Positions 6,415-45,091 of a stretch of 64,000 bases of DNA are shown one piece after another. Each line of letters opens with the position of its first letter. Within the stretch, counting starts at the first letter, position 1. A program made the translations under genes and the position numbers. The notes beneath the pieces are model-generated. The model was not told the origin of the DNA, searched no databases, and saw only the letters and a program-made list of their open reading frames with translations. The stretch is from Verrucomicrobiota bacterium (GTDB lineage: Bacteria; Verrucomicrobiota; Kiritimatiellia; UBA8416; JBHORK01). The DNA is taken from the NCBI GenBank assembly GCA_042565725.1, contig JBHORK010000005.1:4370-68369 (forward strand), in the 5' to 3' direction.

Positions 6415-6540
6415 TAATATCTAAGCACTAAACAATATCAAATAACCAAAATATAAAATACAAAACAAAGACACGAGAAAAGCAGAAGTTTTGAACATTA
6501 AATCATTTGATTTTAGGATTTGTTTAGGATTTAGATATTA
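6415..6540. repeat. long imperfect intergenic hairpin with 7-nt periodic arms
   Basis: Left arm taatatctaagcactaaaca... and right arm ...tgtttaggatttagatatta are imperfect reverse complements. The arms parse as taatatc|taagcac|taaacaa|tatcaaa|taaccaa. Confidence 0.7.
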
Positions 6541-6554
6541 AATATTAGAGCTTC

Positions 6555-6578
6555 CCATTTGAAAACCTTTTCAAATGG
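6555..6578 (-). terminator. hairpin directly after the GH29 stop codon
   Basis: ccatttgaaaa-cc-ttttcaaatgg is an 11-nt perfect inverted repeat 4 nt downstream of the stop at 6582. No clean U-tract, so it is weak as an intrinsic terminator. Confidence 0.4.
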
Positions 6579-6581
6579 AGT

Positions 6582-8039
6582 CTATTTAGAATCTTCAGAT
6601 GCTCGAATCACAGAGAGTGTGCTGATAACCGGACACGCGCGAGAACGTGTAATAGTTAAGCGAACTTTCTGAGCTTTCAAGCCTTTTTCTTCCCAGTGAA
6701 TTCTCTTAAATCCTATGGTTGTACCGTCGAACACTTTTTTCCATGAAGAACCGTCCCACACTTCAATGTAATGTTCGGCCACACGCTGACCAAGCGGGAT
6801 ATATTCACGGACAATAACACCATTGATATCCGTTAATTCTCCCAGATTGAGTTCTATCCGGGCAGTAGTAACATTATCGTCGGTGGCATAATATGTTTCA
6901 TAGTTATTATCCAGCAGGTTCTCAGGTGCATATTGCAAATCATTGCCACGCACGGTATCGGCAGATATCGGCTTACCGACAGCGATATTCCGAGCGTAGA
7001 TACCGTCAACCCATTCTTTAAACTCTTTCAGGCGCGGAATGGATGCCGGATCAATAAGTCCGTCCCTGTTCGGCCCAAGGTTAATCAAAGCAACACCATT
7101 GCGGCCAACAGATGTCATATAGATTTTCTGCAACTTCGAAAGATCACATATAGGCTTGCCGTTCCAGAACCAGCCACCTTGTGCTATCGCATCAGCTTCC
7201 GCCGGAAACCATATTGCATTTTCGTCGACTTTAAGATTCTCGTCCGGAGCGGGCCAGACACTCCAGTTAGGGTCACCGGCATTACCTGCCTCATTGCGCG
7301 GCCAGCGCACACCCGAACGCTCCATATTCGGAAGAGGATCAGCGCGGAAAACAATCATATTAGGCTGATGCTTTTGAAAGATGGCTGCTATAGCAGCCCA
7401 ATCAAGGGTTCCCATCTGTTTCGCGTTACAACCGTCAAACCAGAACTCATCTACAACACCATATTTTGTGCACAGTTCAGTGATCTGTTTCTCAAAGAAT
7501 TTTTGATAGTCTTTTATATGTTCTTTGAATTTTTGTCCTTCAGTAATACGGTCAGGACCAGATACTTTATAATTCATATCCCAGACCGACATATATATAC
7601 CGAACAGCATATCCGCCTCATGGCAGGCATCGGCAACTTCCTTAATGACATCACCTTTCCCATTTTTCCATGGCGAGGATTCGACGCCGAAATCGCTTGT
7701 TTCCGTCTGCCAGTTGCAGGATCCTTCATGATGCTTTGCGGTCAAAACGATACCTTTAAACCCTCCAGCCTTAGCCGCACGAACCCATTGTTTCGCATCG
7801 AACTTTTTGGGGTTGAACTTCTGCATATCCTCTTTTCCCGAGCCCCTGCCGTACTTGTCAGGATAATAAGTTTTTACGCCAAAATGAGCAAACATCAGCA
7901 ATTCTTTATGCTGCCAGGCCATTTGATGTTTTGACGGCACGGGCAAAATGGGTTTAGGGGGTTCAACAGCACTGGACAATTCAGCATTTAAAAGTCCTAT
8001 TACGAAACAAATAACGATCAGCAATACATTCTTCTTCAT
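6582..8039 (-). CDS. alpha-L-fucosidase GH29 with C-terminal F5/8 type C (discoidin)-like domain
   Basis: 485 aa with signal peptide. GH29 core (MFAHFGVKTYY..., LTAKHHEGSCNWQTETSDF, ADACHEADMLFGIYMSVWD, EFWFDG). C-terminal beta-sandwich-like region (GVIVREYIPLGQRVAEHYIEVWDGSSWKKV). Confidence 0.85.
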   Translation of the reverse strand: MKKNVLLIVICFVIGLLNAELSSAVEPPKPILPVPSKHQMAWQHKELLMFAHFGVKTYYPDKYGRGSGKEDMQKFNPKKFDAKQWVRAAKAGGFKGIVLTAKHHEGSCNWQTETSDFGVESSPWKNGKGDVIKEVADACHEADMLFGIYMSVWDMNYKVSGPDRITEGQKFKEHIKDYQKFFEKQITELCTKYGVVDEFWFDGCNAKQMGTLDWAAIAAIFQKHQPNMIVFRADPLPNMERSGVRWPRNEAGNAGDPNWSVWPAPDENLKVDENAIWFPAEADAIAQGGWFWNGKPICDLSKLQKIYMTSVGRNGVALINLGPNRDGLIDPASIPRLKEFKEWVDGIYARNIAVGKPISADTVRGNDLQYAPENLLDNNYETYYATDDNVTTARIELNLGELTDINGVIVREYIPLGQRVAEHYIEVWDGSSWKKVFDGTTIGFKRIHWEEKGLKAQKVRLTITRSRACPVISTLSVIRASEDSK

Positions 8040-8099
8040 TCTTCCTCCATTTGTTATGAATATTTAGACTTCTGCAAAATGAATAAATTTTGTAGAAGT

Positions 8100-8217
8100 C
8101 GATACGAGATATGAGATTCAAGATGCGGGATAAGAATTGGCAAGATGTTTGATTGCAAAGTCTTACACTTTCCATTCTTTCCGCTATCTCGGATCCCGCA
8201 TCACATATCCTGTATCG
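8100..8217. repeat. imperfect intergenic hairpin with GATNNNN heptamer arms
   Basis: cgatacgagatatgagattcaagatgcggga (8100-8130) pairs with the reverse complement of tcccgcatcacatatcctgtatcg (8194-8217). The left arm parses as gatacga|gatatga|gattcaa|gatgcgg|gataaga. Confidence 0.7.
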
Positions 8218-8332
8218 GTTCTGTGAAATTATTTAATTTCGCAGAACTTTATATGAATATTACAAAGTTTGAACTATAAGCATTTCCTTTTTGTTCTGTC
8301 AATAGTGGTAAATGTTTTAAAAAATCGAATAT

Positions 8333-10090
8333 TTATTCCGTATAATAAAGATCAAATGTTTCTATATTGGCGCTTTTACCCAGATTCAATCTGACATACT
8401 GCGCTGTGATCGGCTCAATCTGTTCAGAAAGCTCAGATAATTTTTCGCCTTTCAAAAAAGTCTGCCACTTCCCCGAGTCATCTTTATATTCAATCCAATA
8501 TTTCCTGGCATGTCCTTTTCCTGCGTACGCCACAATATGATTAAACTTCATGGGTTTACCCAGATCCAACATTACCCATGGTTTCTCGTCCTCATTCTCA
8601 GCAGACCACTGCTTTGCAACTCTACCTGTCCGAGAAAAAATTTCTTCCTTATCTTTTACAAGTGAAGAGGCGTCCATTTTCTTATTCCTTGATATTCGGA
8701 AACTTGAGCATGACGCTTTTTTGCCGAGGTTAAGCGGAACCAGTGATATCTTTTCCGGTTCTATTCCTGACGCCTGTCCGTCCAGCTCCAGCTCGATGAT
8801 AGTATCCATTTGGTTGTGATGCTTGGAAGCTAACTTGATTTCAAGTTTGTCGTTCTTCTCCTTGAACTTTGGCTTGCCGCCTGTAAGTGCACGGCAGGAT
8901 TTCACCTTTATGCCGGGCGAAGGTATCGTAATGGTATCGTTCTGCCATATGGGATGAAGTATATGCAGATAAATACGGTTATCCTTATGAGTGGAAACCC
9001 CGAACGGACCCGGCTTGTACGGCCCGCACCTGGTGCCATAGATGCTATCGCCGTATTTCTCGAGCCACTGCCCAATCTCAATATATCTTTTAACATGCGG
9101 TTCGTGCAGCGTGCCTTCCGGAGTTGGACCCGTATTCAAGGCAAAGTTCCCTCCCATACCTGCACAGCGAACAAGAGCGCGTATCAGGTATTCGAATGAT
9201 TTAGGTTCCGACGGACCACACCAGGACCATGGTCCGCCGATGGTCATGCATGTCTCCCACGGACGTTTCGGAGAAAAAACGCCAAGATGCTGTTCAGGTG
9301 TCTGGTAATCGCCCCATTTCTGTGCCTGATGACTGATTCTGGTATTAACGAGTAACCCCGGCTGAAGTGTACGAATCATTTTTAAAAGTTCAAGGCCATC
9401 CCACATGGCCGGATTTTTACCCAGGCCGTCAAACCAGAATCCATCTATTTTGCCGTAATTTGTGCATAATTCCCTGAGCTGATTATGGAGATGGACAACA
9501 AACCTTGGATGGTTCTCTGTATTATAGTCCGGATGATGCCAGTCCGGCTGTGAAAGATACCAGAATATTTTTATACCGGCCTCATGACATGCGTCCGCAA
9601 GCTCTTTGGATACATCCCGTTTAAAAGGCGTGCTCATGATATCGTAATCAGTGTATTTGCTGTCGAACATGCTGAAACCATCATGGTGCTTGGTTGTGAA
9701 AATAAAATATTTGGCGCCTGACTTCTTCATCACGTCGACCCACTCTTTAGCGTTGAATTTAACAGGGTTAAACTGTTTATAGAAATTGTCATATATTTCC
9801 AAAGGTATCTTACCGGGGTTAGGATCGGGAAGGTCTTCCCCTATCCTGCCGCGACCGCGGGAATGACTTATGGTTTTCCCGCCTATAACAGCCGGACCCC
9901 AATGTACAAAGAACCCGAATTTAGCGTCCTTCCACCACTTCATATGTTCTTCCGGAGCATAGACGTATTTTTCATATCCCGGAGGAATATCCTCTATCGG
10001 CTCCACCTTATATTCAGCGCGAACAAATGTTGCAACGCTCAGCGTGAAGATGAAGGCTGCAATCAGTATAAGTTTTGATTTCAATAGCAT
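8333..10090 (-). CDS. alpha-L-fucosidase GH29 with C-terminal F5/8 type C-like domain
   Basis: 585 aa with signal peptide. MKWWKDAKFGFFVHWG, TTKHHDGFSMFDSKYTDYD, ADACHEAGIKIFWYLS, DGFWFDG. C-terminus KPWVMLDLGKPMKFNHIV...YWIEYKDDSGKWQTF. Confidence 0.85.
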   Translation of the reverse strand: MLLKSKLILIAAFIFTLSVATFVRAEYKVEPIEDIPPGYEKYVYAPEEHMKWWKDAKFGFFVHWGPAVIGGKTISHSRGRGRIGEDLPDPNPGKIPLEIYDNFYKQFNPVKFNAKEWVDVMKKSGAKYFIFTTKHHDGFSMFDSKYTDYDIMSTPFKRDVSKELADACHEAGIKIFWYLSQPDWHHPDYNTENHPRFVVHLHNQLRELCTNYGKIDGFWFDGLGKNPAMWDGLELLKMIRTLQPGLLVNTRISHQAQKWGDYQTPEQHLGVFSPKRPWETCMTIGGPWSWCGPSEPKSFEYLIRALVRCAGMGGNFALNTGPTPEGTLHEPHVKRYIEIGQWLEKYGDSIYGTRCGPYKPGPFGVSTHKDNRIYLHILHPIWQNDTITIPSPGIKVKSCRALTGGKPKFKEKNDKLEIKLASKHHNQMDTIIELELDGQASGIEPEKISLVPLNLGKKASCSSFRISRNKKMDASSLVKDKEEIFSRTGRVAKQWSAENEDEKPWVMLDLGKPMKFNHIVAYAGKGHARKYWIEYKDDSGKWQTFLKGEKLSELSEQIEPITAQYVRLNLGKSANIETFDLYYTE

Positions 10091-10110
10091 ATTCCTTTTC
10101 GTAATTATTC

Positions 10111-11664
10111 TTATTTCTCTCTTTGCTTCAGATTGCGCGCCGCCTTTGCATCTTTCATTTTCTGTTCAATCAACTCAGTTTCGCGCTCCGCATCCAGCAT
10201 ATCAAGATCGCTTATGAACGGTGAGGCAGGCAGGCCTTCTTTATTATAAAGCAGCTTAGTGTGTGTGTAAGGAGCATAATAGAAATAACGAACGGCAACA
10301 GGCTTCGCCACCGATTCACTGGAGACAACAACCGTGTTTCCCTTAATAACAGCCTTTGCCATATGCCAGTTCTTGTCTGAAGATGCCAACTCAAAATAGT
10401 CCAAATCAGACCCGGGCAGAAACTTAACAGCCTTAAATGGATCTTTTTTCCCAACTTTCAAGCCGCCGCCAATATAATCAAATTCCACAACAACCTCGTT
10501 ACCATTGATTCTAATGTCTTTGTAAACGGGGCCACTATAGGGAACATCAATGCCATAATCTTTTGCCAGCGCCCAGGCCGCCAGTCTTTTCCCTACCACC
10601 ACCTTTTCCGGAGGGTGAGCCGATGGGCCGCCAACATCAACCGCAACAGCCATCCCTGTGCTTTTCATTCCCAGCGTTTGACGCTGACATTCTCGCAAAA
10701 TGCCCCTGTTCCATTTCGAGGAAGGAGTGAGCTGAACATAATAGAAAGGGAAATCGCCCTGCCCCCATTTTTTGCGCCAGGACTGAATCATTGCGCGTTG
10801 TTTCAGATCATAAAGTTTTGCTTCTTCCATAGGAGCCACATTGGATTCACCCTGATACCAGAGCGCACCTTTTATTGCGTAAGGAACAACAGGATTAACC
10901 TTCGTATTAAAGATAACCGTTGAAAGCTGCGTCGACTCCTTTATCACAGCCTTGTCTTTAGGAGATTTTCTAAGAGCATCGATTTTCTCTTCATCCGCCG
11001 CAAGCTCCTTCTTCAATTCCGGATAAATATCAAAAGATTCCCGCGGCATATACACATCTATCTTTCTTCCGCCCCATGGTGTCATCAACATCCCAACAGG
11101 AACGTCGATTTGCGTAAAAAGTTCCTGAGCAAAGAAGTATGCCACTGCGCCGAGCGATGGTGCTGCTGAAGGCGAGCATATTATCCAGGACCCTCTGCAG
11201 GTATTCAGAGGATCTGCGCTAACAGAATGTCCATTACGAAAAAAACGAATCAAAGGATAATCAGCTTCTGCGACAATTTTATCGGTATCCGGTATTTTTG
11301 ATTTCAGAATAGACCAGCCCATATTGGACTGACCACTGGCATGCCAAACCTCTCCGACAAGAACACCTTTACAGGTAACAGTATTATTGCCCTTAATAAC
11401 CAGCTCGCGACCTGTAGCATTGGCTTTCATCGGGTCGAGCCTGATCATCCAGTTTCCGTCCTTATCGGCGCTAACAGTTTTCTCCTGCCCATCAAATGTG
11501 ACAGTAACTTTTTCGCCGGGATCAGCTGTTCCCCATACAGGCACCTGCATCCCACGCTGCAGGACTGCATTGTCGCAAAACATGCTTGCAGGAATGACAT
11601 CGCCCAAAACAATTGAAACGCAAAAGAATACAGTCGCCAGTAATACAAATATTCTTTTATTCAC
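10111..11664 (-). CDS. sialate O-acetylesterase (SASA family)
   Basis: 517 aa with signal peptide. GEVWHASGQSNM catalytic-serine block and ALWYQGESN block are typical of sialic-acid 9-O-acetylesterases. 4-nt overlap with the upstream GH2 gene. Confidence 0.8.
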   Translation of the reverse strand: MNKRIFVLLATVFFCVSIVLGDVIPASMFCDNAVLQRGMQVPVWGTADPGEKVTVTFDGQEKTVSADKDGNWMIRLDPMKANATGRELVIKGNNTVTCKGVLVGEVWHASGQSNMGWSILKSKIPDTDKIVAEADYPLIRFFRNGHSVSADPLNTCRGSWIICSPSAAPSLGAVAYFFAQELFTQIDVPVGMLMTPWGGRKIDVYMPRESFDIYPELKKELAADEEKIDALRKSPKDKAVIKESTQLSTVIFNTKVNPVVPYAIKGALWYQGESNVAPMEEAKLYDLKQRAMIQSWRKKWGQGDFPFYYVQLTPSSKWNRGILRECQRQTLGMKSTGMAVAVDVGGPSAHPPEKVVVGKRLAAWALAKDYGIDVPYSGPVYKDIRINGNEVVVEFDYIGGGLKVGKKDPFKAVKFLPGSDLDYFELASSDKNWHMAKAVIKGNTVVVSSESVAKPVAVRYFYYAPYTHTKLLYNKEGLPASPFISDLDMLDAERETELIEQKMKDAKAARNLKQREK

Positions 11665-14600: not shown

Positions 14601-14663
14601 TTACTCCTCACGATTGTCAAAAGAATGAATAGTTTTAAACAGGAACAGGATCGCGATGTTTTT

Positions 14664-14873: not shown

Positions 14874-14892
14874 CCTGAGAATTTTATTTTAA

Positions 14893-17775: not shown

Positions 17776-18609
17776 ATGGGAATTATGGTAAATTATGACG
17801 GTATAAACGTTAAATGGCATGATAGGCATATTTCATCCCCCGATGCTGTTATTGGCAAAGTAATATATCAGCCCGGCGGTATTTGCGGGCCGCGGATCCA
17901 ACGGGATTATCAGCTTGTAGTCCTACACTCGGGAGAATGCGAATTACTTCTTGATAAGGAAAAGCGCACATTAAAGAATGGGCATATCAGCCTTCTGCTT
18001 CCAAACCATAAAGAACACTTCATTTTCTCTAAAGAAAAGGAAACGCACCATTCCTGGTGTAGTATCGCCCCAAAAGTTTTGCCAAGACAGTTAAAACAAC
18101 AACTTGCTGAAGCTCCGTTCATGGTTCCCTGCTCAGAAGCGTTTAATCAACTGTTGTCGTCGGCTTTTCTCCTTGAGTGGTCAAAAAGTAACGACGCAAA
18201 TAATATTATTAACTCGCTTGCCACAACCAGTTTTTTTGAATTCCTGAATATTGCTCGAAGGATCTCCGAAGAAAAAGGGGTTGATACCTGCGTTACAAAA
18301 ACACTCAGCTATATGGGAAAACATTTTGTCGACAAAAACTGCCTCATTAAGAGCCATGAATATGCGGGAGTGTCGCGTTGTACCCTGATTAACAAATTCA
18401 AAGAATCGATGCAATCAACACCAGACCGTTATTTATGGAAACTACGCACCGAAAAAGGGATATCTTTGCTGATGGACACAGGTTTAACAGTCTCTGAAAT
18501 TGCTTACCGATGCGGGTTTCCAACTCCATTCCACTTTTCCAGAAAGGTAAAAGAACTGCAGGGTATGTCGCCAAGAGAAATCCGGCGCAGGATTTGGACA
18601 GGAAAATAG
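17776..18609 (+). CDS. AraC family transcriptional regulator
   Basis: 277 aa. N-terminal cupin-like region. C-terminal dual HTH (GVSRCTLINKFKESMQSTPDRYLWKLRTEKGISLLMDTGLTVSEIAYRCGFPTPFHFSRKVKELQGMSPREIR). Confidence 0.85.
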   Translation: MGIMVNYDGINVKWHDRHISSPDAVIGKVIYQPGGICGPRIQRDYQLVVLHSGECELLLDKEKRTLKNGHISLLLPNHKEHFIFSKEKETHHSWCSIAPKVLPRQLKQQLAEAPFMVPCSEAFNQLLSSAFLLEWSKSNDANNIINSLATTSFFEFLNIARRISEEKGVDTCVTKTLSYMGKHFVDKNCLIKSHEYAGVSRCTLINKFKESMQSTPDRYLWKLRTEKGISLLMDTGLTVSEIAYRCGFPTPFHFSRKVKELQGMSPREIRRRIWTGK

Positions 18610-18623
18610 TCCGCATATTGCAT

Positions 18624-18743
18624 GAACAAAACGAAAAGGTTTTAGTAAATGTTTAAAATAATAGTGTTTACAGGTGTTTTAAATGTAAAATGAAGAATTA
18701 CACTTTGTAACTCTAATATTTAAGAATATTTTTCGTTTTGTTC
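18624..18743. repeat. long hairpin (14-bp perfect terminal inverted repeat) between convergent genes
   Basis: gaacaaaacgaaaa (18624-18637) and ttttcgttttgttc (18730-18743) are exact reverse complements flanking about 90 bp of AT-rich sequence. Confidence 0.7.
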
Positions 18744-18783
18744 ACCGGAAGGTCAGCTTCATACAACGCATCGCCTTTGTTCT

Positions 18784-18829: not shown

Positions 18830-18883
18830 ACGCCGCGGCGCTGCATTACCTGAAACTGATGCAATAAGCGGAATAGTCTGCTC

Positions 18884-21277: not shown

Positions 21278-21374
21278 ATTGGAGTAATGGAGTGTTGGAG
21301 TATTGTAGCGCCAGTGGCCATCCATAAAAGTTTTTAATCTCTCTTCCATTACTCCACTCCTCCACTACTCCATT
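21278..21374. repeat. imperfect hairpin with short-period arms overlapping a stop codon
   Basis: attggagtaatggagtgttggagtattg (21278-21305) pairs with the reverse complement of ccattactccactcctccactactccatt (21346-21374). The right arm contains the stop of the 490-aa ORF. Confidence 0.7.
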
Positions 21375-24995: not shown

Positions 24996-25029
24996 GACAA
25001 GAAATATACCAAAGGCATGTAGGAATGGT

Positions 25030-25155
25030 CAATGGTTGATGGTTGATGTAGAATGAATATCCAACAGCCAACAAGGAATATCCAAGGCACAAGGGAGCAG
25101 ACCAATTAAATCCGTTGGTAATTGGAAGTTCCTTGCTGGATATTGAGTGTTCGGT
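25030..25155. repeat. imperfect hairpin element with heptamer arms in divergent promoter region
   Basis: ggttgat|ggttgat|gtagaat|gaatatc|caacagc|caacaag|gaatatc|caaggca|caaggga. The right arm ttccttgctggatattgagtgttcgg is complementary with a one-unit indel. Inner 7-bp IR ccaatta...taattgg. Confidence 0.7.
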
Positions 25156-31122: not shown

Positions 31123-31245
31123 CAATTGAACAGCCAACAAGGAACACCCAATAACGAAGGACGGAAAAGAACATTGTAAATTCCAAATCAGAATTTGATA
31201 TCTTTCCTTGGATATTGGATATTACTTGTTGGCTGTTGGGCATTG
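31123..31245. repeat. imperfect hairpin element, same core as 25030-25155
   Basis: caattgaacagccaacaaggaacacccaataacgaagga (31123-31161) pairs with the reverse complement of tccttggatattggatattacttgttggctgttgggcattg (31205-31245). Both arms carry AACAGCCAACAAG(G/T)AA and 7-nt periodicity. Confidence 0.75.
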
Positions 31246-32084: not shown

Positions 32085-32189
32085 GAGCCAATCAGGCAAA
32101 AAGTTTAGACAGGATCAACAGGATTTACAGGATTAGGATTTTGCGGAAATTTGATTGATCTAACAATATAAATTTATAAGGCTATTCGT

Positions 32190-32942: not shown

Positions 32943-32970
32943 TTTGCGTTGTAACGCAAATCATCAAGGG

Positions 32971-33269
32971 GATAGAAAGGGATGAAGAGGGTAGCAAGGG
33001 AAATCGGTATCCAAATCGGTATCGAAATCGAAATAATATGGGGTTGAGATGCGAAAAACTGAATATCTACCGTCCTGTGATTCTCTGAATATTGTCTAAG
33101 GCAATGGCAAGACGGCGAAATCGATAGCGATCCCGATAGCGATAGCGATTTCGATGGGGTTAAATTTGGTTAAGGTGAATATAACAAAAATAATGAGGTC
33201 AAAGTGACAACTTTAAATCAGGACTTGACCGTACCGTGACCATCCCTTCCTACCCCTTCATCCCTTATC
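32971..33269. repeat. about 300-bp nested imperfect palindromic element
   Basis: Outer arms gatagaaagggatgaagagggtagcaagggaaat / ccatcccttcctaccccttcatcccttatc. Inner arms aaatcggtatccaaatcggtatcgaaatcgaaat / cgaaatcgatagcgatcccgatagcgatagcgatttcgat (6- and 12-nt periods). Confidence 0.7.
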
Positions 33270-33862: not shown

Positions 33863-34633
33863 ATGTGCACCTCTCTTGCCACTGCCCAGATTCAGCTGGC
33901 AACAGATCTATTTGAAGAATCAGATTTCGAATCATGTATATCCGAGTGTAAGCGGGTTCTTGCGGTTTCACCATCCAATCACACTGCGCGTCTTTTACAT
34001 TCAGTTGCCAATCTTCGCCTGGAAAAGCAAATAGATAATTCCATCAGCGAATTGAAAAGCCTGATTATTCCTGACACACCAATCGAAATCAGAACAAAGG
34101 CAGCCTACGAATGCGCCAGGGCAGAATGGGAACGAGGGCACTACCAAACGGCCTTTGAGTTGTTTCAGATAGCTTTCCACAACACTTCAAATAAAGGGAT
34201 TTTTCTGAAAAGCGCCTGTTCATTGTTTCTTCTGTTTGAAAAAAAACCCGAACTGAAGAAAAAAAACACTGATCTCGTTATGCAAATTAATTCAAGCAGA
34301 ACTTTATGGTACGGCAAATTATTTTCCGAATGCCGAATTAATAACAAAAAAAAGAAAACCGCACTTACCGGCAAGCCGGGCGAATGGGGAATCTGGTTTT
34401 ACCGTAAACAGATCAGTCCCGCATTGGGTCAGCGCTGCTCTCTTCATCCTTCATGCTCAGAATACGGCCGACAGGCACTGCGAAAACACGGTATTCTCGG
34501 GTTAGCTTTTATCGCGGACCGCGGTGTGCGTGAGCCGGCCGTGACAGCCAAACGGAAAGCGCCAATCAGAATTGGCGAACACTGGCGATACCAGGATACT
34601 GTTGAAGAACATGATTGGTGGATGAAAAGGTAG
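33863..34633 (+). CDS. TPR-like protein with C-terminal YidD (membrane protein insertion efficiency factor)-like domain
   Basis: C-terminus WFYRKQISPALGQRCSLHPSCSEYGRQALRKHGILGLAFIADRGVRE matches the YidD/haemolytic-domain pattern (YqxxiSPxxxxxCrfxPtCSeYxxxAixxhG). Start uncertain: ATG 33863, or TTG 33824 giving a signal peptide MRIPVLATGILFFMCTSLATA. Confidence 0.6.
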   Translation: MCTSLATAQIQLATDLFEESDFESCISECKRVLAVSPSNHTARLLHSVANLRLEKQIDNSISELKSLIIPDTPIEIRTKAAYECARAEWERGHYQTAFELFQIAFHNTSNKGIFLKSACSLFLLFEKKPELKKKNTDLVMQINSSRTLWYGKLFSECRINNKKKKTALTGKPGEWGIWFYRKQISPALGQRCSLHPSCSEYGRQALRKHGILGLAFIADRGVREPAVTAKRKAPIRIGEHWRYQDTVEEHDWWMKR

Positions 34634-34681
34634 GGACGAGCGGCTCGCTCGTCCGTGGTCGAGCCAGCGGCTCGACCCTAC
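34630..34681. repeat. REP doublet (REPIN-like): two inverted GTAG-headed palindromes
   Basis: GTAGGGACGAGCGGCTCGCTCGTCC, and on the opposite strand GTAGGGTCGAGCCGCTGGCTCGACC. Each is a 9-bp stem / 3-nt loop hairpin. Immediately upstream of the RAYT gene. Confidence 0.75.
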
Positions 34682-34703
34682 CAAATATTTTCAAAGGGAA
34701 ATA

Positions 34704-35156
34704 ATGCAATATCAATGTCGCAAACAATTACCTCATTCTATTCCTCATTGGGTTGACACTGACAATGCCGTCTTCTTCATTACTGTCTGTTGCGAGCAAA
34801 AGGGAGAGAATGTTTTATGCAATCAAAAAAACGCCAATGCAATTTGGGAAAGCATCGAAACCCGAATAAAACAAGATCTATGGCACCCTCATCTCGTTCT
34901 TTTAATGCCCGATCATCTACACATGTTAGTCGTTTTTAACTTGCATTTAAAATCAATGTCTAAAATTATGGCTTCATGGAAGAGTTGGTGCAGAAAGAAA
35001 ACAGGCATCAACTGGCAAAGAAGCTTTTTCGATCATAGACTCCGTAATGATGAAAGTTTGAGGGAAAAAGCAGGTTACATTCTCAACAATCCAGTACGAA
35101 AACAATATGTGAAAGAATGGAAGGATTGGAAGTACTACTGGCTTCCATCTAAATAA
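34704..35156 (+). CDS. REP-associated tyrosine transposase (RAYT; IS200/IS605 Y1-transposase-like)
   Basis: 150 aa. HUH motif in LLMPDHLHMLVVF. C-terminal FFDHRLRNDESLREKAGYILNNPVRKQYV (catalytic-Tyr/NPV block). Flanked by REP hairpins. Confidence 0.8.
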   Translation: MQYQCRKQLPHSIPHWVDTDNAVFFITVCCEQKGENVLCNQKNANAIWESIETRIKQDLWHPHLVLLMPDHLHMLVVFNLHLKSMSKIMASWKSWCRKKTGINWQRSFFDHRLRNDESLREKAGYILNNPVRKQYVKEWKDWKYYWLPSK

Positions 35157-35162
35157 TGGTCC

Positions 35163-35187
35163 ACGGTCGAGCCAGCGGCTCGACCGT
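35163..35187. repeat. REP hairpin downstream of RAYT
   Basis: acggtcgagcc-agc-ggctcgaccgt has the same core (ggtcgagccagcggctcgacc) as 34657-34677. It creates the spurious N-terminal extension MVHGRASGSTV of the next ORF. Confidence 0.75.
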
Positions 35188-36454: not shown

Positions 36455-36481
36455 ATCTTTTACAAAAAAGGTATTATAACT

Positions 36482-36826: not shown

Positions 36827-36842
36827 GTCGGGCGGTTCATAT

Positions 36843-37757: not shown

Positions 37758-37811
37758 CATCTCTCACAGCACGTGATGAACACATGCCAGGGAGAACACA
37801 GAGACACAAGA

Positions 37812-38816: not shown

Positions 38817-38871
38817 GCTTTACTCTCCCCTTTTAATTAGTCAAAATAGCAGATCAAGGAGACAGATGCAA

Positions 38872-38899
38872 GATACGAGATACGAGATACGAAATACGC
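38872..38899. repeat. heptamer tandem array (GATACGA x3 + AATACGC)
   Basis: gatacga gatacga gatacga aatacgc, in the divergent region between the OMP-like gene and birA. Confidence 0.85.
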
Positions 38900-38925
38900 G
38901 GAACGGACTATGGGGCGGCAGGCTC

Positions 38926-39630
38926 ATGATTTTTGAATCGCTTCCTTCGACCAATCAGTGGGCACTTGAAAATATTGCCGACTGCCGACATGGTGATGTT
39001 ATACGAGCAATCCATCAAACTGCCGGTAAAGGCCGATTCCTGCGAGAATGGATCACACCGGAAAACACATGCCTTACTATCACTATTGTCCTAAAACCGC
39101 AATCAGCCGACGAATCACTTGCTACCGCAGTAATGCAAATGGCTGCTTGTGCTGTCAGAGCCACACTCGAGAAGTTCAAAATCACAGCTTTACTTAAATG
39201 GCCCAACGATGTGGTTGTTAACGGCAGAAAAACAGCGGGCATTCTGGCCGAAAATGATCCCGCAAACCACTGTATCGTTCTGGGTATAGGCATGAACGTC
39301 AACCTTACAGAGCATGATCTTGGCAACATACAATTACTTCAGCCTGCAACATCAATGGCTATAGAAAAAGAACAAGCCTTCGACATTGAACAGGTTTGCT
39401 CCGAACTGCTAAACGAGTTTGAAACTCTCTATAATAAATCTTCCTGCCTTAAAATATGGGGGGAACACGATTTTCTCACAGGAAAATCGATAGAAGTACA
39501 AACCACAGATAACATCATTACCGGACAATACAATGGTATTGATGATCAAGGAAGATTATGTCTTACAGACAGTTCCGGCAAAAAACATGAATTCTGGTCG
39601 GGAGACATCACATTGCGGAATTCGGATTGA
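38926..39630 (+). CDS. birA: biotin--[acetyl-CoA-carboxylase] ligase (group I, no HTH)
   Basis: MIFESLPSTNQWA..., QTAGKGRFLREW (GxGRxGRxW-type motif), KWPNDVVVNGRKTAGILAE. Start at M74 (38926) preferred. ATG 38866 is possible but would translate the heptamer array. Confidence 0.8.
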   Translation: MIFESLPSTNQWALENIADCRHGDVIRAIHQTAGKGRFLREWITPENTCLTITIVLKPQSADESLATAVMQMAACAVRATLEKFKITALLKWPNDVVVNGRKTAGILAENDPANHCIVLGIGMNVNLTEHDLGNIQLLQPATSMAIEKEQAFDIEQVCSELLNEFETLYNKSSCLKIWGEHDFLTGKSIEVQTTDNIITGQYNGIDDQGRLCLTDSSGKKHEFWSGDITLRNSD

Positions 39631-39646
39631 CGATTGCGGATTGATG
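39612..39646. repeat. heptamer array (ATTGCGG-like x5) spanning the birA stop codon
   Basis: attgcgg aattcgg attgacg attgcgg attgatg followed by T7. Encodes the last residues ...ITLRNSD* of BirA. Confidence 0.8.
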
Positions 39647-39755
39647 TTTTTTTCACTTCAAGCTTGCATTTATACCCATTATCCGGCACAAATACGCAAC
39701 TTTATTAGTTTCGAATACTGCGCAAAATTAACATAAATACTTACAGGAGAACAAG

Positions 39756-41624
39756 ATGCAAAATAAATACGAAGAGCTTCTTGAAAGTAAAATGAGCGAA
39801 GAAAGCTATAAAAAGCTGTCTGCCCTTGAAAATGATGAAGTCATGAATTATATCGGTTATGCTGTAGAGTTATGCGAACCTGATAATGTATGGGTCGGTG
39901 ATGATTCAGACAAAGACGTAGCATATTGCAGACAGCTCGCGATTGACAACAAAGAAGAGGTTCCTCTTAAAACCGAAGGGCACACGGTACATTTTGACGG
40001 TTATTCCGACCAGGCTCGAAAGAAAGAAGTAACAAAATACCTGGTTCCGCAGGGAGTTGATCTGGACAAAAAACTCAACCAGATGCCGCGCGAAGAAGGC
40101 ATTAAAGAAATGGAAGATCTTCAGAGAGGCGCCTACAAGGGAAGAACCATGCTTGTCCGCTTCTTCTGTCTCGGCCCGACAAACAGTCAATTTGCTATTC
40201 CATGCCTGCAGATAACCGATTCGGCATACGTAGTACACAGCGAAGACCTGCTCTACCGTCGCGGCTACGAGGAATTCAAAAGACTTCCTGAAAACGGTGA
40301 GTTCTTTAAATATCGTCATGCAACCGGCGAAGTTGACGATCGTATGACGTCAAAACACCCTGACCTTAACCGGGTATATATGGATTACACGCAAAATACA
40401 GTTTTGAGTGTAAACACTCAGTATGCGGGCAATACTGTCGGCCTCAAGAAATTATCCCTGCGGCTGGCTTTGCGCAAAGCCGACCGTGAAGGCTGGCTCG
40501 CGGAACATATGTTTATCATGCGCAGTAACGGACCAAACGATCGTAAAACATATTTCTGCGGAGCATTTCCAAGCGCGTGCGGCAAAACCGCCACGGCAAT
40601 GATTCCCGGCGAGAATATCGTTGGTGACGATCTGGCTTACTTCAAGGTTATTGACGGCGAATTCCGGGCAGTAAACGTTGAAAACGGAATTTTCGGTATT
40701 ATAACCGACGTGAATTCCAAAGATGACCCAGTGATATGGGATGTTCTGAACAAGCCAGGTGAAGTTGTATTTGGAAACGTACTGGTAAAAGACGAAAAGC
40801 CGCACTGGATAGGAATGGACGGCGGAACACCTTCAGAGGGCTGTAACCATGTCAGTACAGAATGGAAAGAAGGCATGAAGGGACCTGATGGTAACCCCAC
40901 AACCCCCAGCCACAAAAACGCACGTTACACCGTGCAGATGAGAGATCTCGAGAATGCCGCTCCAAACTGGGACAATCCTGAAGGATTGCCCATAGGCGGT
41001 ATAATCTATGGCGGACGTGACAGCGACACATCCGTTCCTGTTCGCGAAGCATATAGCTGGGAACACGGTATATGCACAATGGGCGCAACACTGGAATCAG
41101 AAACGACCGCGGCAACCATAGGACAGGAAGGTGTTCGCAAGTGGAATGTAATGTCAAATATGGATTTTCTTTCAATGTCCGTAGGACACTACATCAACAA
41201 CAATCTCGAATTTGCGAAAGACATTAAACGTCCAAAAGTATTCGGAACAAACTACTTCCTTAAAAAGGACGGAGAATACACTAACGGCAAACTTGATAAA
41301 TCCGTCTGGATCAAGTGGATGGAACTCCGTGTTCATGGTGATGCTGAAGCCAAAGACGCCGCATACGGACTCATCCCCAAATACGAAGATCTAAAACGGC
41401 TTTTCAAACAGGTCCTGGATATTGATTATAGCGAGCAGGATTACATCGATCAGTTCACAATACGTATTCCGGAATGTATAGCCAAACTTGACCGTATGAA
41501 AGAAATCTATTCTACAATAGAAGACACCCCTCAGGAAATGAAGGATGAGATGACTGCCGAACGCAAGCGGCTTGAAGACCTGCGCGCGGCCAAGGGTGAT
41601 TATATAAGCCCTTGCGACCTGTAA
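39756..41624 (+). CDS. pckG: phosphoenolpyruvate carboxykinase (GTP)
   Basis: 622 aa. GTP-PEPCK kinase-1a motif FPSACGKT, plus characteristic YFLKKDGEY.. and WMELRVHG blocks. AGGAGA RBS. Confidence 0.95.
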   Translation: MQNKYEELLESKMSEESYKKLSALENDEVMNYIGYAVELCEPDNVWVGDDSDKDVAYCRQLAIDNKEEVPLKTEGHTVHFDGYSDQARKKEVTKYLVPQGVDLDKKLNQMPREEGIKEMEDLQRGAYKGRTMLVRFFCLGPTNSQFAIPCLQITDSAYVVHSEDLLYRRGYEEFKRLPENGEFFKYRHATGEVDDRMTSKHPDLNRVYMDYTQNTVLSVNTQYAGNTVGLKKLSLRLALRKADREGWLAEHMFIMRSNGPNDRKTYFCGAFPSACGKTATAMIPGENIVGDDLAYFKVIDGEFRAVNVENGIFGIITDVNSKDDPVIWDVLNKPGEVVFGNVLVKDEKPHWIGMDGGTPSEGCNHVSTEWKEGMKGPDGNPTTPSHKNARYTVQMRDLENAAPNWDNPEGLPIGGIIYGGRDSDTSVPVREAYSWEHGICTMGATLESETTAATIGQEGVRKWNVMSNMDFLSMSVGHYINNNLEFAKDIKRPKVFGTNYFLKKDGEYTNGKLDKSVWIKWMELRVHGDAEAKDAAYGLIPKYEDLKRLFKQVLDIDYSEQDYIDQFTIRIPECIAKLDRMKEIYSTIEDTPQEMKDEMTAERKRLEDLRAAKGDYISPCDL

Positions 41625-41643
41625 ACGGTTGACCATAAAAGAA

Positions 41644-41858
41644 TTAGACAGGATAACAGGATTTTTTTGGGATTGCTCTCGCCCCGCAACTGCGGGGCGC
41701 TCGCTGGTTGGGAGGGATTAACGTTATGGGGCCAACATCCACATAATCAAACAGACCGCTGCAGAAATTTGTTCCGATTCCGCAGGATATCGGAGGAAAT
41801 TAATGCAGCATCCAAATCTTTGACAATCCTGCTTCCCCATCCTGTGATCCTGTCAAAA
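41644..41858. repeat. inverted-repeat-bounded element with internal GC hairpin in convergent intergenic region
   Basis: ttagacaggataacaggat (41644-41662) pairs with the reverse complement of atcctgtgatcctgtcaaaa (41839-41858). Internal hairpin cgccccgc-aact-gcggggcg (41680-41699). The GACAGGAT(C/A)ACAGGATT core also occurs at 32106-32142. Confidence 0.65.
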
Positions 41859-41903
41859 TTCTTCTCCCCTGACTTCCTCAATGGGACACCAAAAAACAAA
41901 ATA

Positions 41904-42611
41904 TCACAAAAGGCTTTTTAGATCTGCGGAACTTTCCTTGGCTTCCTTTATACTTTTCTCTGCTGCACTGGTTACCTGATTAACCGTTTCAATTGTTTTA
42001 GCCTGAGATTCAGGTCCCAGACTAATGCCGCCGACCTTGGCCGCAATATTATTGATCGGCGTTCTGATACCGCTCATTACATCCTTATCGAGCAGGCTGA
42101 GATATAGAATCCCGACAGACGCTACAGTCAACAAAAGAGTCCAGAACAACAGCACAGCCGCCCACCAACACCTGGGTTTAGGGGGCGCTTGAATTTGCGT
42201 CAATATCGCTCCATTTTCTTCGTTCGCCGCTTCCTGTGCAGGAGAAGGCATTGCTTTTTTTCTGGCCACTGCAGCAGCAGCTTTTTTCATACCGGCAGGA
42301 ACGGGTTTCTTCCCTACAGGTTGCTTGATTGCCGACACCTGTTTCTTGACCGCCGCAGGAACAGCCCCTCCCGCCTTAACCAGCTGCGGTTTAGCAGGAG
42401 AAATCTTTGCGCCGACCGCAGGTGCTGCCTTTGGCAAGACTGCTTTTGCGTTACCCGGTCCATTAGCCGCAGTCAAGGGTTTAACAGGCGCAGCTCCAGA
42501 AGGAGTGAGTTTCGGCTTTATTTGATTAACTGTTTTCAATTCAGGCTTTCCAGCGGGCGCTAATCCCCCTGTTTGTGCCCCTGCATTCGGTGTTTTCACT
42601 TCTTCCGCCAT
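41904..42611 (-). CDS. hypothetical Ala/Pro/Lys-rich protein with one TM helix
   Basis: Start at MAEEVKTPN (ATG 42611; AGGAGG 5 nt upstream). Low-complexity A/P/K N-terminal half, TM segment WWAAVLLFWTLLLTVASVGILYLSLL, short C-terminal domain. Confidence 0.5.
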   Translation of the reverse strand: MAEEVKTPNAGAQTGGLAPAGKPELKTVNQIKPKLTPSGAAPVKPLTAANGPGNAKAVLPKAAPAVGAKISPAKPQLVKAGGAVPAAVKKQVSAIKQPVGKKPVPAGMKKAAAAVARKKAMPSPAQEAANEENGAILTQIQAPPKPRCWWAAVLLFWTLLLTVASVGILYLSLLDKDVMSGIRTPINNIAAKVGGISLGPESQAKTIETVNQVTSAAEKSIKEAKESSADLKSLL

Positions 42612-42651
42612 GTTTCTCCTCCTAAGGTAAAATAACACACAACGCCCACTT

Positions 42652-43431
42652 CTATCTAAGTCTTAAAACATCTCCAACTTGAAGATCTTCTTTTATCCTG
42701 CCTGATTTTTTCTTGCATACCACTACACTGCGATACACATTACCAACAACCATTTTCCCCACTACCTGATCACCGCGCAAAACATTATAAGCATCATCTT
42801 TATTTATCGCCGCACTGCCTTCAAAAGTTACAACGGTGACATCCCCGGGCTTGATGCTTGTTATCTCTCCATCATCCGCTTCCCTATCCCCCTCTTTTCT
42901 CTCAGGGGATAACATCGTCTGCCATAGTTTAGGATAAGCAGCGATTACAGATTTTACTTCCACTAATTCATTATTAATTTCTACCAATTTCTTCCTGTCC
43001 GCGTTTAATTGTTTAACCACCGTGTTCTTTGCCTCTATCAAGTCATTTATCCTTTTCAAATTGGCTTGATTTTGTTTATCCAAAGGCTCAACTTTGGTTA
43101 AAGCCTCATTTAATTCTGTCTCAATCTTTTGCTTGTCTATTTTAGCCTGGGCCAGATCGGCTTCCATCTGATCCTTGTCCTGTTTGGCAGACTCCAGATC
43201 ATCCGAAAGCTGTTGATTTGTGGATTTCAGACTCGTTATTTTCTCCTTGATTGAAGATCCAGTCTGCTTTAAGTCGTCAACAACCTCCCCTTGCCCGGAA
43301 ACGCTTTTTTGAAGGGACGCTATCATCCCTTCCTGTTTCTCTATTAGCGCCCAGGCTTTCATAGACAAAAAAGCAAATGCTATTGAAAGCAGGAACACCA
43401 ATATGACCATTAACTTTGACAGTTTACTCAT
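42652..43431 (-). CDS. hypothetical membrane-anchored coiled-coil protein
   Basis: 259 aa. N-terminal TM helix, about 130-aa heptad-rich coiled coil (DLESAKQDKDQMEADLAQAKIDKQKIETELNEAL), small C-terminal beta-rich domain. Confidence 0.5.
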   Translation of the reverse strand: MSKLSKLMVILVFLLSIAFAFLSMKAWALIEKQEGMIASLQKSVSGQGEVVDDLKQTGSSIKEKITSLKSTNQQLSDDLESAKQDKDQMEADLAQAKIDKQKIETELNEALTKVEPLDKQNQANLKRINDLIEAKNTVVKQLNADRKKLVEINNELVEVKSVIAAYPKLWQTMLSPERKEGDREADDGEITSIKPGDVTVVTFEGSAAINKDDAYNVLRGDQVVGKMVVGNVYRSVVVCKKKSGRIKEDLQVGDVLRLR

Positions 43432-43556
43432 TTTAAACTTCCTTATTTATGTACAACAATTAAGAGTATTTTATAAGATTTTACAGGAATAAATATTAAT
43501 TTCAATCCCCCTGTTTGTCAACGATTACTCCGCATTTATCATTTCTAATTCTTCCA

Positions 43557-44669
43557 TCACCACCCCATCAGATAACCGGCAAGTCCAATACAGCCTCCGA
43601 TCACGAAACCAACCACCTTGACCGCCACAAAAGCGCGTCTGGAATGAGCCAACACAGGCAGCATTCCGTGCCCATTCTGCACAATACAATTCGCCAAAAG
43701 AACACTTAAAGGTATCATTCCCTGAGCATAAAGAGTGACAAAAATTAAATGCGGGCCGGACTGAGGAATAAGACCCACCAGACAGGCAATCAACAATACC
43801 ACTAGATGACTTTCTTCTATCAGCGGCTCTAAATCCATGTGATCGATAAGAATGTGCATGAGCAGTAAAGCTCCGAACGTCCACACAAAAATTCGCCAGA
43901 CATGCACCTTAGCCAGATGTTTCCACAGATGCTCTTCCAGAAAATGGTCAGGCACAGTAGACACGATAAACAGTCCTATACAACCGGCGACAAGAAGGGT
44001 AATACGCACCCAATTCCATCCGCAATGGTGCGTTACTTCAGCGCCGAAATCCATATCGTGATGCCCTATTTCACCCGACACAATTCCTACAATAAAAAGA
44101 GTTAGAAAAAATGTCAGCCAGCCTCGATGCGCCGAACAATGTTTCCACTGATCAATTAACTCACGCCATGAAAAACAAATACAGCGTTCTTCTTCACCAT
44201 GAACAGACTGATACGCGCTGAGATGTTTATCCTGTTGTGTTCTCCGGTCTTTAAAAATAAAATCAACCGCTATTCCGCTCACTATCCCGACAACCAGCAA
44301 AACAGCAAAGATTATCAGGGCCTGACGCGGAAACAAAGACAACATCACAAATGCTTCGTCACCGCTTGTAGCAAGCATGGCTGCTGTAAGCGCACCGAAA
44401 GTTATTACTTTGTGCGTATAAAGACTTACTGCCGCGTAAGACCCCAGGCAACCGGGAGTTACACCCAACAGTGATGTGAATATAGACTGCCCCCATTTAT
44501 AGCGGCTGATCTTATTTTCCCACTTACCTTTCGACAGAACATTGAAATACTCAATCACCAGCATCATCACAAAAACAAAGCTGGTAATCATCAATGTATG
44601 CTTGAGAACTTCTACTATCATCCTAAACCTTATTTTTCCGGCGTTTTGTAACAAATCCCATTCTGTCAT
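43557..44669 (-). CDS. polytopic membrane protein, possibly putative 10-TM heavy-metal exporter (ArsP_2-like) family
   Basis: 370 aa, about 10 TM helices. GVTPGCLGSYAAVSLY and ATSGDEAFVML blocks recalled from that family. Start may be M17 (44621). Confidence 0.45.
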   Translation of the reverse strand: MTEWDLLQNAGKIRFRMIVEVLKHTLMITSFVFVMMLVIEYFNVLSKGKWENKISRYKWGQSIFTSLLGVTPGCLGSYAAVSLYTHKVITFGALTAAMLATSGDEAFVMLSLFPRQALIIFAVLLVVGIVSGIAVDFIFKDRRTQQDKHLSAYQSVHGEEERCICFSWRELIDQWKHCSAHRGWLTFFLTLFIVGIVSGEIGHHDMDFGAEVTHHCGWNWVRITLLVAGCIGLFIVSTVPDHFLEEHLWKHLAKVHVWRIFVWTFGALLLMHILIDHMDLEPLIEESHLVVLLIACLVGLIPQSGPHLIFVTLYAQGMIPLSVLLANCIVQNGHGMLPVLAHSRRAFVAVKVVGFVIGGCIGLAGYLMGW

Positions 44670-44755
44670 CCAGATAACATCATGCCTTGGAGCATGTTAC
44701 CCGAGAATTACCCTTCTCCTCCTTTAAAAGCCTGCCTCGTTCTTGAAGAATATTT

Positions 44756-45091
44756 AACCACGGAGTACACGGAGGCACGGAGAAGAGATAACTAAGAAAA
44801 GAGTGTTGCGTTATTTTCTGCCGGAAGTATCCGGGCAGAAAATTCCGCAACGGTTTGTAAAGGGAAGGAAGAGGAGTAGACCGAGAAAACATCAGCATCC
44901 CTTACATAATACAGGCTTTTAATCATATGTTCTGTTTCCTCCGTCTTTCTCCATCCTATCCATCGTTGCATGAATTTGGCGCAGATATTTCCATACATAC
45001 ACACAATCCAATATCTAGAGGAGTCAATATCTGTGTCAAATTCATGCAACCTCCTCTACTTCTTCTCCGTATCTCTGTGCCCTCCGTGGTT
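44756..45091. repeat. nested inverted-repeat element filling the intergenic region
   Basis: Outer arms aaccacggagtacacggaggcacggagaag / cttctccgtatctctgtgccctccgtggtt. Inner hairpin ttttctgccgg-aagtat-ccgggcagaaaa (44814-44842). 11-bp exact IR gcatgaatttg (44968-44978) / caaattcatgc (45037-45047). Confidence 0.7.

Follow-up and report, generated by a model that had tools for sequence, protein, structure and literature searches.

What are the long imperfect hairpins, with arms built of short tandem repeats, that recur along this contig of a Verrucomicrobiota bacterium? The DNA analyzed, referred to here as the window, comprises 64,000 nucleotides (nt) of contig JBHORK010000005.1 (C159:4370-68369; C numbers denote contigs) and is part of a 2.96-Mb, 203-contig, 73%-complete metagenome-assembled genome (MAG) of Kiritimatiellae type. 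An earlier, sequence-only reading had described a dispersed family of such hairpins, but missed that their arms belong to small gene cassettes, in which genes of the four-helix-bundle family PF05635 go with arms of period 7 and genes of the GxxExxY family PF13366 with arms of period 8-10. With moderate confidence, we interpret the hairpins as the terminal inverted arrays of two classes of tiny promoter-less cassettes and of their more numerous gene-less or one-armed derivatives, which would be selfish DNA whose arms are arrays of sites and not selected stems.

The association between genes and arms has no exception in this genome. All six PF05635 matches are located between inverted arrays, with arm units GTTACAG, CGTATTT/GCGTGAA, ATCGNN, and, in three cases, GGATATC. 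Likewise, all five intact PF13366 genes are framed by inverted arrays, with the units ACAGGATNN, CACGGAGN (twice), a CGCGAAATAA-like unit, and ACACGAATGA. The four-helix-bundle gene C118:25268-25579 has the GTTACAG arms, and the GxxExxY gene C22:8896-9237 has the ACAGGATNN arms. The arrays framing these 11 cargo genes have scores of 31-62. The cargo proteins carry the NCBIfam names TIGR02436 (four-helix-bundle) and TIGR04256 (GxxExxY); the GxxExxY cargo, which corresponds to PDDEXK_3, was found through hairpins with interiors of 400-500 nt. Within the cassettes, a ribosome-binding site and an ATG directly follow the left arm. The gene-bearing parents encode either the four-helix-bundle protein or a PD-(D/E)XK protein of 125 amino acids (aa), and no transposase.

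Both families are widespread among 64 genomes of the same order, with representatives in 57 and 49 of them. Inverted arrays frame 17 of 20 sampled PF05635 loci and 17 of 19 sampled PF13366 loci in these relatives, compared with 0/40 and 0/38 controls, for which the test window was shifted by 900 nt; together, this amounts to 34 of 39 loci versus 0 of 78 controls. The period of the arms depends on the cargo: of the 24 four-helix-bundle cassettes, 22 have arms of period 7, as opposed to none of the 22 GxxExxY cassettes (Fisher p = 3.5e-11). Arms of the former consist of three to five units of 7 nt, rarely 6, and units of the latter measure 8-10 nt, made up of a 7-nt core and one to three variable bases. 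Units are also shared between genera: GxxExxY genes lie between ACAGGATNN arms in three other genera (L104, L114, L117), and four-helix-bundle genes between TCAGRAN arms in L125 and L127.

These data bear on the proposal that the arrays are binding sites for host global regulators or nucleoid-organizing proteins, with the small genes as passengers. Such a role was proposed in the annotation of Geobacter metallireducens, where families of tandem heptanucleotides were called putative global regulator sites (PMC2700814), and it fits the observation that arms conform to the family unit rather than to their partner. It does not fit the near-complete link to two small gene families described above, the presence of at least 10 unit families in one genome, the same units inside coding genes, or the lack of any enrichment upstream of genes, and we regard it as decidedly improbable.

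Cassettes with damaged cargo are also present. Decayed PF13366 remnants with stop codons reside in three ACAGGAT-armed elements (C118:2499-2815, C30:2218-2496, and C12:3797-4038), and weak four-helix-bundle remnants are found inside ATCGNN-armed elements. A sensitive scan with profile hidden Markov models (HMMs) near all arrays revealed about six remnants beyond the intact genes, compared with one in controls. A dense group of arrays with at least four unit types (GGAACGC, GGAAGTC, GGATTGC, and GGATATC/GGATAGC) surrounds two four-helix-bundle genes at C182:7200-9000, one of which has an internal TAA.

The elements of the window are listed below, with the strand given where one applies.

6415-6540: AT-rich hairpin between two tandem minus-strand genes; arms TAATATCTAAGCACTAAACAA / TTGTTTAGGATTTAGATATTA, with a weak period-7 unit, CTAAANN.
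8100-8217: period-7 hairpin between tandem minus-strand genes; arms starting GATACGA GATATGA GATTCAA GATGCGG.
18623-18744: hairpin that is not a member of the class; a different repeat of about 150 nt with ends CCGCATATTGCATGAACAAAACGAAAAG ... TTTTTCGTTTTGTTCACC.
21278-21374: period-8 hairpin with arms (TGGAGTAN)3; the right arm extends over the final codons of the upstream minus-strand gene.
25025-25155: composite in a divergent intergenic region; (GGTTGAT)3 at 25025-25050, then the module GAATATCCAACAGCCAACAAGGAATATCCAAGG and its degenerate inverted partner CCTTGCTGGATATTGAG.
31123-31245: best hairpin of the window, between tandem plus-strand genes; period-7 arms of the CAACAGC/CAACAAG/GAATATC module and a 43-nt loop.
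32106-32142, plus strand: half element; a single arm, TAGACAGGATCAACAGGATTTACAGGAT, with the 9-nt unit ACAGGATNN, of the type found in GxxExxY cassettes.
32969-33262: nested element; purine-rich outer arms with a period of about 10 around a 230-nt unit at 33001-33230.
C172:11031-11247, C126:18745-19001, C126:63900-64156, C126:40913-41127, and C137:20479-20696: the other copies of this 230-nt unit.
38864-38899, plus strand: solo array (AGATACG)4-5 in a divergent intergenic region; period 7, 95% matches (lag 7, 0.86, p = 0).
39612-39646, plus strand: solo array built from GGATTGC-type heptamers; located at the 3' end of a gene that lies upstream of phosphoenolpyruvate carboxykinase (PEPCK; lag 7, 0.64, p = 0).
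41644-41858: gene-less element between convergent genes; GxxExxY-type ends TTAGACAGGATAACAGGAT / ATCCTGTGATCCTGTCAAA and a 176-nt interior with a GC-rich hairpin.
44756-45091: gene-less copy of a GxxExxY cassette; arms AACCACGGAGNNCACGGAGGCACGGAG, pairing 44756-44786/45061-45091 (31 nt, 84%).

Folding of single strands was scored as z against shuffles, and the periodicity of single arms was likewise compared with shuffles. The sequence-only reading had named twelve loci. Nearly all of them showed inverted pairing, and ten are short-period arrays or hairpins; the exceptions are 18624-18743, which belongs to another repeat family, and 25030-25155, which is an array beside a separate module pair and not one palindrome. 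The arm period, previously given as 6-9 and mostly 7 nt, is 7 nt at 6 of 11 loci; periods of 6, 8, 9, and 10 occur elsewhere, and the arms of the elements at 41644 and 44756, which contain two or three unevenly spaced units, are not significantly periodic on their own.

The element at 44756-45091 is a deletion derivative. It aligns end to end with the gene-bearing copies C183:4759-5236 and C183:~8000-8600 and has kept their arms, ribosome-binding stretch, and 5' inner hairpin as well as an equivalent of the 3' inner hairpin, while about 100 nt stand in place of the open reading frame (ORF). Four further gene-less copies of this type are present elsewhere at 79-88% identity. The elements at 32106-32142 and 41644-41858 bear the ACAGGATNN arms of a cassette on C22: the arm at 32106 (lag 9, p = 0) is 97% identical to those of two cassettes, the intact C22:8780-9325 and the decayed C30:2218-2496. 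At 41644-41858, the ends pair over 19 nt (41644-41662/41839-41857, 89%), the interior is common to copies in C129, C118, and C35, and no coding remnant was detected.

Other elements of the window have period-7 units. The hairpin at 8100 (z = -4.4; lag 7 in both arms, p <= 0.005) belongs to the unit family ACGAGAT, the commonest in the genome with 35 arrays, and its unit is contained in the arms of the four-helix-bundle gene C126:61428-61881. Together with this element, the arrays at 38864 and 39612 have period-7 units that recur in the arms of resident four-helix-bundle genes or other hairpins, such as the GGATTGC-type unit of the 39612 array, which also makes up the hairpin C177:2501-2659. 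The hairpin at 31123 pairs over 33 nt (31129-31161/31205-31237, 85% complementary; z = -6.8, 0/200 shuffles), and its right arm has period 7. It is built, as is part of 25030-25155, from a 40-nt module with the unit order GAATATC CAACAGC CAACAAG GAATATC CAATnTC CAAGG. This CAACAGC module has 29 occurrences in the genome, including 4 paired and 21 solo copies, and usually precedes a ribosome-binding site and a dead short ORF. One ORF behind a solo module gave a weak N-terminal four-helix-bundle match (9 bits, own profile); a Pfam search of the short ORFs behind two modules gave no recognition. The stretch at 25030 as a whole folds weakly (z = -2.1), and the array at 25025-25050 is periodic at lag 7 (0.79, p = 0). 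The hairpin at 6415 (6415-6435/6520-6540, 21 nt, 86% complementary; z = -4.3) is periodic at lag 7 in its left arm (p = 0.013) and not significantly so in its right arm, and has copies in C24 (83% over 124 nt), C117, C141, and C88.

The hairpin at 21278 pairs 21286-21308 with 21352-21374 (z = -3.4), and both arms are periodic at lag 8 (match 0.78/0.82, p = 0). Its TGGAGTAN family has at least 14 members, seven of which have the loop attaaattgacaaaaactctttttc; this 25-nt loop is nearly invariant in the hairpins at C111:26086, C126:70220, C131:15556, C137:40017, C203:50998, and C116:18865, which suggests that the loop, and not the arms alone, is copied or constrained. A promoter within the loop was considered and rejected, as TTGACA is present there, but no suitably spaced -10 box was seen by eye.

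In the nested element, the outer arms (32969-32993/33232-33256) have period 10, and the element at 33000 folds with z = -2.5. The enclosed 230-nt unit has period-6 arms, (ATCGNN)n / (NNCGAT)n, at 33000 and 33116; an 87-nt core and an 80-nt tail containing a small hairpin make up the rest. The window copy and the five other copies share 89-95% identity and have sharp ends and unrelated flanks. The same period-6 ATCGNN arms frame the four-helix-bundle gene C77:26914-27377. Most copies of the unit have a purine-rich array at their left end, and several sit among other short-period arrays (GAACATC, CGTATTT, GGGATAG).

Genome-wide counts revealed that the window samples a large class of repeats. 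In a strict lag test (at least 18/21 matches at a given lag), which is independent of Tandem Repeats Finder (TRF), we found 206 lag-7 stretches, along with 7 at lag 6, 34 at lag 8, and 15 at lag 9; a shuffled copy of the genome yielded 0 at every lag. TRF itself identified 637 period-7 arrays, compared with 62 in a Markov-3 shuffle, and about 17 unit types make up more than half of the 637. The genome-wide check of period-7 enrichment beyond chance, which had been set beforehand, thus found it in both measures. A looser threshold yields 670 arrays with periods of 6-9, of which 128 have an inverted and 44 a direct partner within 600 nt, versus 2-7 for reverse-only and complement-only controls. 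They form at least 85 distinct hairpins, 54 with a loop of 10-100 nt, and many arrays are solo, without an inverted partner. Dispersed hairpins with short-period arms are therefore real and genome-wide, but instead of the single family initially described there are at least 10 sequence families, which fall into two classes. With head-to-tail units of 6-9 nt in at least three copies, over-representation, and a mainly intergenic location, they are short-period tandem arrays in the usual sense. Two of the three core motifs singled out by the sequence-only reading recur and are absent from the shuffled genome: AACAGCCAACAAG[GT]AA (3 in the window, 29 in the genome) and GATACGAGATA (3 and 49). The third, GACAGGAT[CA]ACAGGATT (1 and 2, shuffle 0), is exact only once in the window because the real unit is the 9-nt ACAGGATNN.

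The arrays are concentrated between genes and indifferent to the type of gene pair. Intergenic DNA makes up 11% of the genome and holds 339 of the 670 arrays, a density about eight times higher there, and the share of spacers with arrays is 14.5-16.3%, alike for tandem, convergent, and divergent gene pairs; the comparison of spacer contexts showed no enrichment upstream of genes. Array density is about four times that of 559 kb around PEPCK in 53 other genomes, mainly of the Planctomycetes-Verrucomicrobia-Chlamydiae (PVC) type (Planctomycetota, Verrucomicrobiota, Lentisphaerota), where arrays are present but sparser.

Chance palindromes together with ordinary intrinsic terminators could be invoked for individual sites, since those at 18624 and 41644 lie between convergent genes and one inner hairpin is GC-rich. 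The shuffles refute this explanation for the class, as do the inverted partners, the absence of T-runs, and the lack of a context preference, and its probability is negligible. The earlier statements that the elements are not terminators and not CRISPR arrays hold; units abut without spacers, and arrays form inverted pairs.

The same modules, each made of non-identical units in a set order, turn up at many loci; examples are the CAACAGC module (29) and, likewise, TTTAGACAGGATCAACAGGATTTACAGGAT. Entire elements whose interiors are non-repetitive are also found repeatedly, with 79-95% identity between copies. Neither pattern can result from local slippage; a fixed unit order at up to 29 loci and shared non-repetitive interiors show that the spread was by copying. 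Replication slippage would otherwise offer a simple account, in which the arrays are simple-sequence repeats (SSRs), possibly contingency loci, inverted pairs arise via hairpin-templated repair, and small genes land or survive nearby. Heptamer SSRs are over-represented in many bacterial genomes for reasons not known (PMC4692102), some arrays here are perfect (e.g., 1774-1805), and a 7-nt unit shifts the reading frame, with in-frame arrays carried by about 28 paralogous secreted proteins. Apart from the copied modules and whole elements, the concentration of more than half of the 637 arrays in about 17 unit types and the dependence of arm period on cargo family are difficult to reconcile with slippage, which we consider quite unlikely as the general explanation.

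If the elements are copied, the next question is whether they act as DNA or as RNA. Host-selected RNA elements would have stems that serve as RNase III processing or stabilizing sites in polycistronic transcripts, uncoupling cistrons or freeing a small cargo mRNA, with repeats as an easy way to build a stem. In line with this, the 20-40-bp stems match the size of RNase III substrates, many elements fill the entire spacer between co-directional genes, and in the flanks that were read the left arm is directly followed by a ribosome-binding site and then the cargo gene (these flanks were not scanned for promoters). In addition, an intervening sequence of Coxiella with a 28-bp stem and tandem heptamers is cut by RNase III in vitro (PMC4990558). 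In tests of modest power (40 elements; families of 6-13), however, the 40 hairpins between co-directional genes showed no excess of G.U-compatible mismatches on the sense strand (38 sense versus 40 antisense), and in four families the complementarity of an arm to its own partner did not exceed that to the arms of other members. The arms thus appear to conform to the family unit and not to each other. Arrays are also as frequent in divergent spacers as elsewhere, many are solo, and no element matches an Rfam family at gathering score, the only matches in the window being two tRNAs. Moreover, arrays and one whole hairpin are in frame within long genes, where cleavage would destroy the mRNA. On this evidence, selection of the stems as RNA is unlikely.

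The presence of arrays in coding genes departs from the sequence-only reading, which had placed the elements in intergenic regions. In total, 183 arrays are found within ORFs of at least 200 aa, at a depth of more than 90 nt, and 84 of 126 period-7 coding arrays use units also found in intergenic arrays. Three are in ORF 377-3658 (minus strand) of the window, at two places.

1774-1805, minus strand: perfect (ATTTCGG)4.6 array, in frame within ORF 377-3658; encodes NPKSEIRNPK.
3215-3329, minus strand: two heptamer arrays, AGGTGTC-type at 3215-3249 and GGAAYKC-type at 3299-3329, in frame within ORF 377-3658; they bracket a conserved ELERVLAPRGVVLV segment.

This ORF belongs to a secreted family of about 28 proteins of about 1080 aa, with a methyltransferase-like N-terminus and a PQQ/BamB-like propeller, which accounts for 72 of the 183 coding arrays and has paralogs on C11, C66, C130, C40, and C4. 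The arrays of the family are always in frame and occur in two linkers, at +320-470 and at +1850-2040 nt, and their units differ between paralogs. The linker position of the 1774-1805 array carries arrays in about 25 paralogs, and three paralogs lack the linker. One complete hairpin, C11:25239-25339, is read through in frame within a long gene of the family. In six other genera, homologues carry period-7 arrays at these linker positions too, with other units. Phase variation of the secreted family, through the frame shift that a 7-nt unit causes, is possible, and the in-frame arrays at fixed linkers suggest a role of the repeats in the evolution of proteins or as on/off switches of genes.

Among known systems, the ORF-bearing intervening sequences of 23S rRNA in Coxiella burnetii and Leptospira come nearest to the cassettes. 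They contain an S23p four-helix-bundle ORF within a long stem, are cut by RNase III, and have long been proposed to be a mobile element or a derivative of one (Warrier et al, 2016, PMC4990558). Common to both are the PF05635 gene within a long terminal stem formed by inverted repeats and tandem heptamers beside an ORF that is often decaying. In contrast to them, no copy read here is inserted in a 23S rRNA helix or elsewhere in rRNA, as every one is located in or between protein-coding genes; copies with a gene are greatly outnumbered by those without; and there is a second cargo, GxxExxY, with another arm period. In our literature search, no publication linked PF05635 or PF13366 with arrays of this kind outside rRNA.

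Heptamer arrays have been reported with the units GGGAATC in Xanthomonas and GGGGAYT in Nostoc (Rehm et al, 2015, PMC4692102), and G. metallireducens has four or five tandem heptanucleotides inside and between genes, including pairs of sites located on opposite strands (Aklujkar et al, 2009, PMC2700814). The arrays described here resemble these repeats in having about four 7-nt units, hundreds of copies that are mainly intergenic and also intragenic, some inverted, and a function left unexplained. The reports treat them as G-quadruplexes, regulatory RNAs, or regulator sites, without a tie to a gene family, whereas here there are many unit types per genome, in a phylum new to such reports, and a tested link to two cargo families. 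The short tandemly repeated repetitive (STRR) sequences of heterocystous cyanobacteria were reportedly described by Mazel et al in 1990. An assignment of the present arrays to the STRR sequences of a cyanobacterium was rejected, as the gene content and the nearest PEPCKs are those of Kiritimatiellia/Lentisphaerota MAGs.

The gene-less copies resemble MITEs (miniature transposable elements with inverted repeats): they are small, non-coding, and multicopy, have terminal inverted repeats, and include internal-deletion derivatives of a gene-bearing parent. The MITE-like behaviour suspected earlier is borne out in part: several elements have dispersed copies that are 79-95% identical and end sharply against unrelated flanks. 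Unlike MITEs, they have a parent without transposase and ends that are arrays of tandem units and not a single inverted repeat, and they lack target-site duplications at the ends inspected (see below). Repetitive extragenic palindromic (REP) elements, their REPIN doublets, and the REP-associated tyrosine transposase (RAYT) (Bertels & Rainey, 2011, PMC3116915) are comparable as intergenic palindromic repeats in hundreds of copies, with a single small gene flanked by repeats. The cargo proteins described here, however, are not HUH tyrosine transposases, and the elements do not have the defining features of REPs. Finally, Ssn nucleases are GIY-YIG proteins that cut single-stranded DNA at a single motif, the NTS repeats (Chenal et al, 2025, PMC11893778). 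They likewise pair a small stand-alone nuclease gene with a short repeat in hundreds of genomic copies, for which the nuclease is specific, but the putative nuclease here has a PD-(D/E)XK fold, and the repeats are tandem arrays in inverted pairs.

We therefore return to the two classes of cassettes as the preferred interpretation. Class 1 would consist of a four-helix-bundle gene (PF05635/TIGR02436) between arms of 7-nt units, and Class 2 of a GxxExxY PD-(D/E)XK nuclease gene (PF13366/TIGR04256) between arms of 8-10-nt units. Each arm would be an array of putative recognition sites for the element's own protein or a host protein, and the hairpin a by-product of having the same site array inverted at both ends. 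Where transcribed, the long stems may be RNase III substrates, by analogy with the rRNA intervening sequences. From the structure of the copies, we infer that the elements spread as selfish DNA cassettes with MITE-like empty derivatives.

Several observations weigh against this interpretation. Most arrays and hairpins have no detectable cargo remnant in the HMM scan, and for the abundant TGGAGTAN and GAACATY families neither the 73%-complete MAG nor the 39 cassettes sampled in relatives yielded a copy with a gene. In two families whose copies align well (5 and 6 of them), inspection of the ends revealed no target-site duplication. Neither insertions nor excisions were observed, the nearest genomes for comparison belonging to other families (81% aa identity in PEPCK); an exact-protein match search for orthologous sites returned no contigs, and a metagenome collection contained no close relative. 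The literature search found no reported activity for a PF05635 or PF13366 protein, and the four-helix-bundle protein has, to our knowledge, no known catalytic fold. The wobble and covariation tests, which gave no sign of selection on pairing, were of modest power, as stated. Heptamer arrays at the same two linker positions across several genera are hard to square with random insertion, and the idea that arrays attract arrays, tried as an account of nested elements and fixed linkers, was not supported by a crude test, in which 24 intergenic regions have two unit families versus 39 +/- 4 expected.

A more far-reaching version can be offered tentatively, as a possibility that we hold with considerably less confidence. 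In it, short-period arrays would be the footprints of two parallel systems of protein-repeat recognition, with rings of the four-helix-bundle protein reading four or five heptamers and GxxExxY nucleases reading 8-10-mers; each lineage would propagate its own unit as a minimal mobile cassette, seed empty hairpins by the hundreds, and write new in-frame linkers into proteins such as the 28-copy secreted family. A solved Xanthomonas structure of the four-helix-bundle protein is said to show pentameric rings.

Heptamer arrays have been noted for decades in cyanobacteria, Xanthomonas, and Geobacter without explanation, and this genome links them to two cargo families, PF05635 and PF13366, both of which are very large and have no assigned function in the sources checked. 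Gene-less copies of the cassette architecture form a large share of the intergenic repeats of the genome. If the proteins recognize their own arrays, the cassettes would represent a new kind of minimal mobile element and provide an annotation rule for hundreds of "orphan" repeats per genome.

Two further repeats of the window are separate from the class. A genuine REP/RAYT pair is located at 34630-35187, where a 150-aa transposase (NF047646, 87 bits) is flanked by GC-rich, 25-nt, GTAG-headed palindromes that are unrelated to the periodic hairpins; sequence, composition, and structure all differ, in agreement with the sequence-only reading. The same reading had found no element in a part of the window that it took for a foreign island. 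The absence is confirmed, but carries no statistical weight for a foreign origin, as the intergenic DNA of the island amounts to only about 630 nt, in which one to three arrays at most would be expected.

The hairpin at 18623 has perfect 15-nt ends (18623-18637/18730-18744; z = -4.6) and non-periodic arms (p = 0.76-0.97). Its repeat of about 150 nt has at least seven other copies at 71-77% identity. In the window (18600-18760) and at C130:5866-6001, C77:39655-39790, C170:60533-60669, and other sites, the strongly conserved ends are CCGCATATTGCATGAACAAAACGAAAAG ... TTTTTCGTTTTGTTCACC..GGCCAG and the middle is variable. A further inverted CCGCTTATTGCAT is located at 18859-18882, 115 nt downstream of this repeat.

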